Virus record (IMG/VR): IMGVR_UViG_2690315994_000016
Coordinates: 1 to 27,303 of that record
Strand: one strand, 5' to 3'
Origin: a virus
Taxonomy: Duplodnaviria > Heunggongvirae > Uroviricota > Caudoviricetes
DNA: 27,303 nt
Under the pieces are notes generated by a model. It saw nothing but the letters and a program-made list of their open reading frames with translations, was not told the origin of the DNA and did no database searches. The translations under genes were made by a program, and so were the position numbers. Numbering within the stretch: the first letter of the stretch is position 1; each line of letters begins with the position of its first letter. This document shows positions 20,860 through 22,617 of this stretch, piece by piece.

Positions 20860-22617
20860 CTATTTCATCAAGTAATCCAATTCATCCTTCATAGGTATAA
20901 CTTGCTCATAAAGTCTATGGTAGGATTTTCCAATTGCACCCCTAAATTGAATAAGTTTAGGGGAAAAGCTACCGATATTAATAATATGTTCTTGCGCTAT
21001 ACCAGGATATGGATCGATAAAAATAATCTCTGTCATACCTAACTGATAAGCTTTTTTAGCACAAAGTTCACAAGGGCTAGCTGTAGTATATAGTTTCCCT
21101 CCATTAATACCGACCCCACCATATTTGGCCAATTGCAAAAAAGCATTCTCCTCTGCGTGCAATGCACGGGTATGCACTTGATTCCCTTTCTTTTCATCAT
21201 CAAGGCTGTTGTGAATATCTTTAAAACAATATGGCAAATTAAGTCCTTTAAAAACAGTAGAACTTGAATCACTCGCCCTTATTTTTATTAAATTTTCTTT
21301 AACTTTACTCCTAAATTTTGTATTACTTCGTTCGTACAGGCTATATGTTCCCTCATCAAAATCATGCAATAACCCATCAAATGACCTCATAGAACAAGGA
21401 ACTTGACCTTTTGCTACATCGTTCCAACCAACTGACTTGATAGAGTTATCATTATCTGTCACAACCGCCCCTACTTGCCTAGATATACATCCAGAATTTA
21501 GTTTTACAGTATATGCAACTTGCATAACCCTTTCCATGGCGGTAGGAGATATTAATCCAGGGTGTTGCATTAATGATACATACCACGCAATTTGTGCTTT
21601 GAGAAAATTATTATTATCAAATTCTTTTTTAGGGTTAAAAAAATGTATATCTGAAATTTCAATGCATTTTTTTACATTAGGATTAGTAAGATGATTATAC
21701 TCGCCAGCTCCTTTACCAGATTCTTCATCATTAATTTTTTTTATCTGTTCCTCTGAGAACTTATGTAATTTCTTTAAATATCTGGTTCGATGTTCATCTG
21801 GTGCATTTATAGAAACCAGATGGAATGCAGCATATCTATCTTTGAAGAATTTAGCTTCATACGGGTTACGTATCGCATCAATGACTATATACGCTTTATT
21901 ATTCTTTACTTTTCTAATTATTTTAATAACACGATTAATTGTTTCAGGTAAATGAAAAACAGCCTTTGGAATAAAGTCTTGATTTTCATAATCTACATCA
22001 ACCTTCCCTATTCTTCTAATTGACTTTCCTGCTGACTGATATAGCTCAATATATAAACCTGGCTCTAGTTCATTTAATTCCCTTTTAAAATCCCGTGTAA
22101 ATTTTCGAGTAAGAGTTAATATCCTAATAAAGGTATCTTTCCCCCTGCCTTTAAAGTCAATCTCATCATCATGATTAAGAAGATTTTTTATCACCTTAAG
22201 ATACTTTATCTTCAACAAACTTTTAGCGAACACACCATTAACAACCAGTTTCTTGGCTGCCTTAAAGGAAATCGAATTTTCTTTTTTATCGGGGATTTTA
22301 CTTGCAGAAAACTGAATGAATTTAGCTAAGGCCGATGGAGATAAAAGGAGCAAATATATTGAAATGAGATCACTGACCTTTATCGAATAGAAGTTCTTCC
22401 AATGAGTCTCTGCAAAATTTTTTACTATTTCATAACGCCGCAAATCCAATCCTTTATAATACTCAGCCAAGACGTTACTATCTGGAAAAGATATTTCTTT
22501 TTGTTCTAAAATATTTGCTGCAGTAGTACATCCTGAGCCAGTTCTCCCAGTTAAACCAATAAGAATAAATTGACTATTTTCTAAAAAAAGCTCACTAATA
22601 AATTTGTGTTCTCTCAT
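20860..22617 (-). CDS. Kinase-like P-loop + cytidine/dCMP deaminase fusion (AvcD/DCD-type nucleotide-depletion defence protein)
   Basis: N-terminal LIGLTGRTGSGCTT (Walker A-like, Lys replaced by Cys); C-terminal HAEENA and PCELCAK zinc-binding deaminase motifs; ~30% GC. Confidence 0.75.
   Translation of the reverse strand: MREHKFISELFLENSQFILIGLTGRTGSGCTTAANILEQKEISFPDSNVLAEYYKGLDLRRYEIVKNFAETHWKNFYSIKVSDLISIYLLLLSPSALAKFIQFSASKIPDKKENSISFKAAKKLVVNGVFAKSLLKIKYLKVIKNLLNHDDEIDFKGRGKDTFIRILTLTRKFTRDFKRELNELEPGLYIELYQSAGKSIRRIGKVDVDYENQDFIPKAVFHLPETINRVIKIIRKVKNNKAYIVIDAIRNPYEAKFFKDRYAAFHLVSINAPDEHRTRYLKKLHKFSEEQIKKINDEESGKGAGEYNHLTNPNVKKCIEISDIHFFNPKKEFDNNNFLKAQIAWYVSLMQHPGLISPTAMERVMQVAYTVKLNSGCISRQVGAVVTDNDNSIKSVGWNDVAKGQVPCSMRSFDGLLHDFDEGTYSLYERSNTKFRSKVKENLIKIRASDSSSTVFKGLNLPYCFKDIHNSLDDEKKGNQVHTRALHAEENAFLQLAKYGGVGINGGKLYTTASPCELCAKKAYQLGMTEIIFIDPYPGIAQEHIINIGSFSPKLIQFRGAIGKSYHRLYEQVIPMKDELDYLMK

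Follow-up and report, generated by a model that had tools for sequence, protein, structure and literature searches.

An annotated anti-phage dCTP deaminase gene in the int-att cargo slot of a P2/186-like ssrA prophage

The DNA examined here is a 27,303-nt stretch of a tailed-phage genome (Caudoviricetes; IMG/VR record IMGVR_UViG_2690315994_000016, positions 1 to 27,303), hereafter called the window. Next to its integrase gene (int) lies an open reading frame (ORF) of 585 amino acids (aa) that, judged by its sequence, is an ordinary and already annotated anti-phage dCTP deaminase gene of the DCD/AvcD family. An initial annotation, made from the sequence letters, had proposed a fusion of a kinase-like and a deaminase domain resembling AvcD and DCD, and this proposal is upheld by family models, by alignment, and by the predicted structure of the protein. 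The same annotation had described the ORF as AT-rich and as lying 13 bp from the convergent int stop, and its coordinates, base composition, and spacing all proved correct. The ORF has a G+C content of 33.2%, whereas the window has 47.7% and int 45.5%, and the 13-bp gap separates the int stop (20846) from the deaminase stop codon (20860). A motif script placed the GSGCTT, HAEENA, and PCELCAK motifs noted at the outset at residues 27-32, 487-492, and 515-521, respectively.

The cargo slot between int and the att site

From position 107 to 22884 the window matches Escherichia phage Cartapus (Peduoviridae, Elveevirus; NC_070909.1) with 95-99.9% identity outside variable regions, and the annotated neighbors form the 186-type set of CI, Int, Cox/Apl-like, CII, Fil, Dam, and gpA. 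The integrase gene, whose product is named "site-specific integrase" in RefSeq, shares 91% nucleotide identity with int of Cartapus. Homology to Cartapus ends 12 bp before the int stop, restarts on the far side of the deaminase gene, and continues to 22884. The DNA between these breaks is the cargo cassette (Table 1), which consists of the ORF with 107 nt upstream and 25 nt downstream. At the same slot Cartapus carries a gene annotated as "RES protein, NAD+ binding domain" (23583-24788 of NC_070909.1). The RES gene begins 9 bp downstream from int and runs in the same direction, unlike the convergent deaminase cassette, and the slot therefore takes cargo in either orientation.

Table 1. Features of the deaminase locus, in window coordinates
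Feature	Position	Strand	Details
Prophage tyrosine integrase, 337 aa	19833..20846	+	Pfam Int_N, E 1.5e-29; Phage_integrase, E 9.9e-24
Whole cargo cassette in int-attP slot	20835..22724		1.9 kb; Cartapus homology breaks at 20834 and restarts at 22725
Anti-phage dCTP deaminase gene (DCD/AvcD family, by sequence)	20860..22617	-	ATG start; 585 aa ORF
C-terminal zinc-dependent dCMP-deaminase-like domain	20908..21555	-	About residues 355-570
PCELCAK zinc-binding motif	21055..21075	-	Residues 515-521; C516, C519
HAEENA catalytic motif	21142..21159	-	Residues 487-492; H487 zinc ligand, E489 proton shuttle
N-terminal NMP/dNMP-kinase-like (nucleoside/deoxynucleoside monophosphate kinase-like) P-loop domain	21628..22569	-	About residues 17-330; Walker-B-like strand YIVID247
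Hypervariable helical insert of the kinase-like domain	22078..22347	-	Residues 91-180; helical in the predicted model
P-loop/Walker A-like motif GLTGRTGSGCTT	22522..22557	-	Residues 21-32; G29; Cys30 at the canonical Lys position; located by motif script
Cassette-specific upstream region, 107 nt	22618..22724	-	Shared with the Citrobacter allele, not with the E1433 or NCTC9038 alleles
Shine-Dalgarno sequence AGGTG	22626-22622	-	Good match; conserved in the Citrobacter allele
Weak sigma-70-like promoter, 17-nt spacer	TTGCAA 22695-22690; AATACT 22672-22667	-	Found by eye; 8/12 positions
Phage attP arm, 113 nt	22725..22837		Two TGCCGCCA direct repeats on the minus strand, 22745-22738 and 22734-22727
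ssrA (transfer-messenger RNA, tmRNA) 3'-end fragment, att core at attR, 47 nt	22838..22884	+	Rfam tmRNA partial match, E 3e-12

The phage attP arm that follows the cassette is kept in Cartapus as well as in four prophages whose deaminase alleles differ, and it is therefore independent of the cargo. Its two TGCCGCCA repeats lie 3 nt apart and show single-base variants across the four prophages; it is plausible that they serve as arm-type Int sites. The ssrA-derived att fragment reported in the initial annotation is borne out by a partial match to the Rfam tmRNA model. This fragment ends in ...CCAGCUCCACCA at 22884, and the ssrA 3' end is also read as ...GGGTTCAACTCCCGCCAGCTCCACCA at the same position, followed by the native ssrA terminator (~22934-22948). 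The 47-nt core is invariant in four loci and is present in the attP of Cartapus, and ARAGORN detected no full-length tmRNA, in keeping with a fragment.

Two further signals were seen near the att core. A partial match to the Rfam IsrM small RNA at 22875-22952 (+) scores 56.6 bits, far short of the gathering score of 376. An IsrM gene at this position was rejected, because the match consists of the ssrA end plus the terminator and covers both ends of the model only. A near-consensus sigma-70-like sequence, TTGAAA-18-TATAAT (11/12 positions; 22801-22830, +), lies in the phage arm and points toward the ssrA fragment and terminator. It could be due to chance, as the region holds one such site and 1.2 are expected in shuffled sequences.

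The interval between int and att has been described as a minor defense hotspot of P2-like phages (NAR 2026, PMC13586616). The window locus belongs to this hotspot: its cassette sits exactly between int and the attP arm and is one instance, the same in kind. The main text of the paper makes no mention of a dCTP deaminase (PMC13586616). The initial annotation had singled out the location as unusual, and it was right about the position, but the position is a recurrent one that had already been published.

In related ssrA prophages this slot is occupied by three further alleles of the deaminase, all diverged, from Citrobacter braakii (83% aa identity) and from enterotoxigenic Escherichia coli (ETEC) E1433 and NCTC9038 (70% each). 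A blastn search of 5,426 complete E. coli genomes found an allele of any type in 44: the window type in seven, the E1433 type in four, and the NCTC9038 type in 20. The remaining E. coli alleles are situated in a tRNA-Phe island (AW1.7) or an integrative and conjugative element (LF82), with genomic context checked for one representative of each allele group. The AvcD locus of ETEC H10407, the source of an AvcI that Hsueh et al. validated, is absent from the 44 genomes with a blastn-detectable allele. The slot alleles differ most in the helical insert at residues 91-180 and at residues 421-450. When divergence is measured in 30-residue blocks, identity at residues 91-180 falls to 20-63%, while the P-loop, Walker-B, and catalytic blocks stay at 87-100%.

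Family membership and the cysteine P-loop

Curated family models place the protein in the DCD/AvcD family. The PADLOC dCTPase model matches at E 2.4e-146, and the NCBIfam equivalog NF041025, "anti-phage dCTP deaminase," scores 420.3 bits in an alignment of residues 17-577 to profile positions 1-437 of 437. A near-identical gene (at least 99.6% nucleotide identity) is found in the seven E. coli genomes that carry the window type, where RefSeq names its product "anti-phage dCTP deaminase" (WP_001206704.1). Like other alleles, which lie in a tRNA-Phe island and in an integrative and conjugative element, the gene is part of a mobile element, here as a cargo cassette in a P2/186-like prophage.

A characterized relative is the DCD protein of E. 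coli AW1.7 (WP_045268677.1, 576 aa), which is 74% identical to the window protein over its full length. The two proteins share a two-domain architecture, an identical GLTGRTGSGCTT block, and the HAE and PCxxC motifs, and AW1.7 residues G29, C30, C370, and C401 correspond to G29, C30, C377, and C408 in the window protein. In AW1.7 DCD, both defense and dCTP depletion are lost in a G29A/C30A mutant and also in a C370A/C401A "deaminase" mutant (Tal et al., bioRxiv 10.1101/2021.04.26.441389, later Nat Microbiol 2022). The depletion of dCTP and protection against phage were demonstrated with this 74%-identical protein only, and both would extend to the window allele by homology.

The kinase-like half of the protein is far less evident from sequence searches than the deaminase half. 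Pfam detects the deaminase domain alone (dCMP_cyt_deam_1, PF00383; E 4.8e-15), and its kinase-type models AAA_18, Cytidylate_kin2, and CoaE all remain below threshold on the deaminase protein. When PDB sequences were searched with the protein itself, or with a 60-sequence profile to find the N-terminal domain, single-domain deaminases were all that came up, and no solved member of the family was among them. Because these searches gave matches to the deaminase domain only, a fold search of the predicted structure was needed to see the kinase fold. It recovered a kinase-like N-terminal domain and a dCMP-deaminase C-terminal domain, so that the predicted model supports the kinase-deaminase fusion architecture. 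The closest solved folds of the C-terminal domain include the viral deaminases of T4 and PBCV-1.

To the initial annotation, the replacement of the Walker A lysine by cysteine was among the most striking aspects of this gene. We compared the protein with the best 150 cluster representatives, which share no more than 50% identity with one another, from a library with 449 clusters at E<=1e-30. The substitution held up on alignment: cysteine occupies the lysine position in 131 of the 139 occupied rows, the other rows carry V, I, Y, T, S, or L, and lysine never reappears. Among the 120 best matches (56-99% identity), all 115 full-length proteins contain GRTGSGCT, and homologs from Bacteroides and Parabacteroides (40-43% identity) contain LTGRTGSGCTT. 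The cysteine is thus present as claimed but is not peculiar to this gene, since across these alignments GxxGxGC[ST] is the normal signature of the family. The alignment with a characterized DCD that the initial annotation had recommended gave the same answer, with G29 and C30 shared between the window protein and AW1.7.

Conservation elsewhere in the protein is similarly strong. H487 and E489 are kept in 149/149 occupied rows, as is C516, and C519 is kept in 148/149. The aspartate of the Walker-B-like strand YIVID247 is found in 147 of the 151 sequences, and HAE, PCxxC, and C377/C408 are invariant in 148-151 of them. Four cysteines outside the HAE/PCxxC site (C318, C377, C408, and C464) are invariant or nearly so in the 151 diverse members. 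Two of these, C377 and C408, are the equivalents of the AW1.7 residues C370 and C401 that Tal et al. mutated as "zinc-binding." The conservation of the four cysteines suggests a second site, for a metal or for structure, like that of T4 dCMP deaminase.

The AvcD-AvcI system of Vibrio cholerae (also called DcdV-DifV) offers a second point of comparison. AvcD has the same P-loop-kinase-like plus dCMP-deaminase architecture, is encoded on a mobile element, has a non-lysine residue in Walker A, and requires both of its domains. In contrast to the window protein, AvcD is 532 aa long and apparently has serine where the window clade has cysteine. A correspondence of C30 with S52 of AvcD is suggested only by the names of the published Walker A mutants, which are S52K in V. 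cholerae and S49K in Vibrio parahaemolyticus; S52K is inactivating (Hsueh et al., bioRxiv 10.1101/2021.03.31.437871; PMC10511110). A 532-aa protein with serine at position 52 was not among the best 150 representatives, in which the nearest serine-type P-loop is GRKGAGSS, in P0253. Because the catalytic lysine is absent throughout the family, we infer that the kinase-fold domain is most likely a nucleotide-binding or regulatory module that is required for activity, rather than a phosphotransferase.

Upstream DNA and the AvcI question

AvcD acts as the toxin of a type III toxin-antitoxin defense system (Hsueh et al., bioRxiv 10.1101/2021.03.31.437871; PMC10511110). AvcI, the antitoxin, is a small RNA co-transcribed from the 5' side of the gene, which needs at least 152-174 nt to function (PMC10511110; bioRxiv 10.1101/2021.03.31.437871). 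The AvcI transcript of V. parahaemolyticus is ~300 nt long. AvcD is freed as the labile AvcI decays after rifampicin treatment or infection. The prophage cassette offers much less room. The deaminase ATG is 220 nt from the att core, and only the first 107 nt of this distance is specific to the cassette. The AW1.7 gene, which is located in a tRNA-Phe integrative island, differs from the window gene in being preceded by ~520 nt of intergenic DNA, ~220 nt of it conserved.

No equivalent of AvcI was identified upstream of the window gene. Rfam gave no match at gathering threshold across the whole window, and at E<=10 in the interval 22400-23100 nothing appeared beyond the tmRNA fragment and the ssrA terminator, to which the partial IsrM match was traced. 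The predicted RNA fold of 22618-22841 (-) has a z-score of -1.09, which is no better than those of shuffled sequences. Upstream regions compared across 14 loci showed no similarity beyond the same allele, and a scan of genome contigs gave only 12 loci, which are too few, and in their upstream regions too divergent, for covariation analysis. Because the published AvcI RNAs share no sequence similarity (Hsueh et al.), the absence of an AvcI-type RNA cannot be concluded from these results. A scan for sigma-70 consensus promoters at a threshold of 9/12 positions likewise found none on the minus strand upstream of the deaminase gene. The candidate TTGCAA-17-AATACT falls below this threshold and draws its support only from conservation in the Citrobacter allele.

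Upstream DNA of the AW1.7 type was also compared over 400 nt at five loci. It is 96-99.8% identical in E. coli, Erwinia, Buttiauxella, and Pseudocitrobacter, and over ~220 nt an identity of 72-75% persists in Yersinia, close to that seen in the coding sequence. This upstream DNA is a candidate for a conserved regulatory or AvcI-like element of the AW1.7 clade.

Cassettes in the prophage slot, with no more than ~107 nt of upstream DNA of their own, could conceivably lack an AvcI-type RNA and be held inactive by a different mechanism. We consider this rather unlikely. If such a mechanism exists, it may involve autoinhibition through the helical insert at residues 91-180, or an RNA formed from the 5' untranslated region together with the attP arm. 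Five mutations render AvcD insensitive to AvcI, including E123K and A126T (Hsueh et al.). If the 22-residue offset between S52 and C30 holds, these two would fall in or near the helical insert, which we regard as a lead and not as a result. Were the prophage-slot enzymes indeed controlled in this way, the DCD and AvcID clades would differ in how they sense infection.

A nucleotide-depletion defense and its alternatives

The gene very probably encodes a DCD/AvcD defense enzyme that is carried as AT-rich cargo by an Elveevirus-type, P2/186-like ssrA prophage and stays inactive until phage infection. For its substrate, defense phenotype, and trigger, we infer by analogy from the literature on homologs. 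By homology to AW1.7, the lysogen would make the deaminase constitutively but keep the enzyme inactive. An incoming lytic phage that shuts down or subverts host transcription would then activate it. A trigger of this kind is proposed because T7 escapers of AW1.7 DCD carry mutations that map to gp5.7, an inhibitor of RNA polymerase, and because AvcD is freed when AvcI decays. In AvcD homologs, a shutoff of transcription activates the enzyme because the AvcI RNA is lost, and both dCTP and dCMP are deaminated (bioRxiv 10.1101/2021.03.31.437871; PMC10511110). Once active, the zinc deaminase domain (H487/E489/C516/C519) would turn dCTP, and probably dCMP too, into deoxyuridine nucleotides. The resulting collapse of the deoxycytidine nucleotide pool would starve phage DNA replication, with the cysteine P-loop domain binding a nucleotide or regulator rather than transferring phosphate.

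Several observations weigh against this account. The NF041025 cutoff of 400 bits is cleared only narrowly. Given its 26% divergence from AW1.7, most of it at residues 91-180 and 421-450, the window allele could differ from its relative in phage range and trigger. The AlphaFold2 model is of low confidence near the deaminase core (residues 376-379, 401-405, and 478-486), and the first two of these stretches lie at or close to the conserved C377 and C408. The failure to identify an AvcI-type RNA, described above, belongs among these points as well.

Since the gene is phage-borne and the closest solved folds of its deaminase domain are partly viral, the protein might instead be a nucleotide-metabolism enzyme of the T4 or PBCV-1 kind that benefits the phage by supplying dUMP for making dTTP when the prophage itself replicates, rather than defending against other phages. 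We judge this highly improbable. The dCMP deaminases of T4 (Cd, 1vq2), PBCV-1 (bi-DCD, 7fh4), Streptococcus mutans (2hvv), and human (DCTD, 2w4l) are single-domain metabolic enzymes of 140-190 aa that are subject to dCTP/dTTP allostery. Unlike the window protein, they have neither a kinase-like domain nor a defense role. The window protein, in contrast, is a full-length, above-cutoff member of a defense family and a close relative of a proven defender. The gene is also dispensable for the phage, because it occupies a variable AT-rich slot, has RES as an alternative occupant, and is absent from the near-identical Cartapus.

A true bifunctional kinase-deaminase, in which phosphotransfer by the N-terminal domain (such as the interconversion of dCMP and dCDP) is coupled to deamination, would account for the kinase-like fold, yet it too is very unlikely. 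A catalytic P-loop NMP/dNMP kinase (GxxxxGK[ST]) was rejected as a candidate because only the fold matches: Cys30 stands at the lysine position, and none of the 139 aligned family P-loops contains lysine. Introducing a lysine into AvcD (S52K) yields an inactive protein, and no Pfam kinase model reaches threshold. There is even less reason to see the protein as a housekeeping enzyme that deaminates dCMP, as a deaminase that edits tRNA or DNA, or as a decayed remnant, any of which seems exceedingly improbable despite the Pfam dCMP_cyt_deam_1 match and weak APOBEC/MafB19 matches. The model for the housekeeping enzyme ComEB (TIGR02571) reaches 41.6 bits against a cutoff of 219.45 and aligns to residues 483-537 only, and a protein of 585 aa with two domains is not the deaminase lacking a kinase-like domain that the initial annotation had named as its counterexample. 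Moreover, the gene is rare (7/5,426 E. coli genomes) and prophage-borne, and no DNA or RNA editing was found for the AW1.7 homolog (Tal et al., bioRxiv 10.1101/2021.04.26.441389, Fig. S2 legend). A pseudogene was rejected on the grounds that the ORF is intact with all catalytic residues present.

Other defense-related genes may lie elsewhere in the window. The region 11074-13400 is the classical gpA-to-portal hotspot of P2, and the window differs from Cartapus between 11933 and 13333. An ORF of 193 aa at 12173-12754 (+) shows weak PADLOC matches to ShosT (E 1.3e-8) and PsyrT (E 1.5e-7), and it overlaps by 10 nt a 189-aa ORF without matches (12745-13314). Together these ORFs may form a two-gene ShosTA/PsyrTA-like toxin-antitoxin defense pair (12173-13314). 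A further ORF at 11074-11772 (-) encodes a DUF4145 protein with a weak PD-T7-4 match.

A second integrative element, with a P4-type integrase (23008-24279), directly follows attR in the part of the window from 23008 to 27303. Its AT-rich genes (31-36% GC) include a 138-aa ORF without matches and one for a 603-aa DUF6119 protein (24721-26532, -). The element also encodes a 225-aa protein that is annotated as HxsA (His-Xaa-Ser repeat) in O55:H7 genomes, which carry this element at 99.9-100% identity. PADLOC gave no matches on this second element. In the seven genomes that carry the identical deaminase, another island follows attR.

The identity of the deaminase gene, its cysteine P-loop, and its location are all already known, because the exact gene is annotated in RefSeq under a curated equivalog model and the int-att slot is a published minor P2 defense hotspot. 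The finding therefore has little significance beyond annotation: the E. coli lysogen carries a nucleotide-depletion defense gene that can be moved horizontally by a P2/186-like prophage. The locus also provides a clean, base-pair-resolved example of the minor int-att cargo slot, which holds either RES or one of at least four diverged dCTP-deaminase alleles. As regards a possible use of an AvcI-like RNA by DCD-type genes of E. coli, the window locus adds only that the gene is accompanied by very little upstream DNA.

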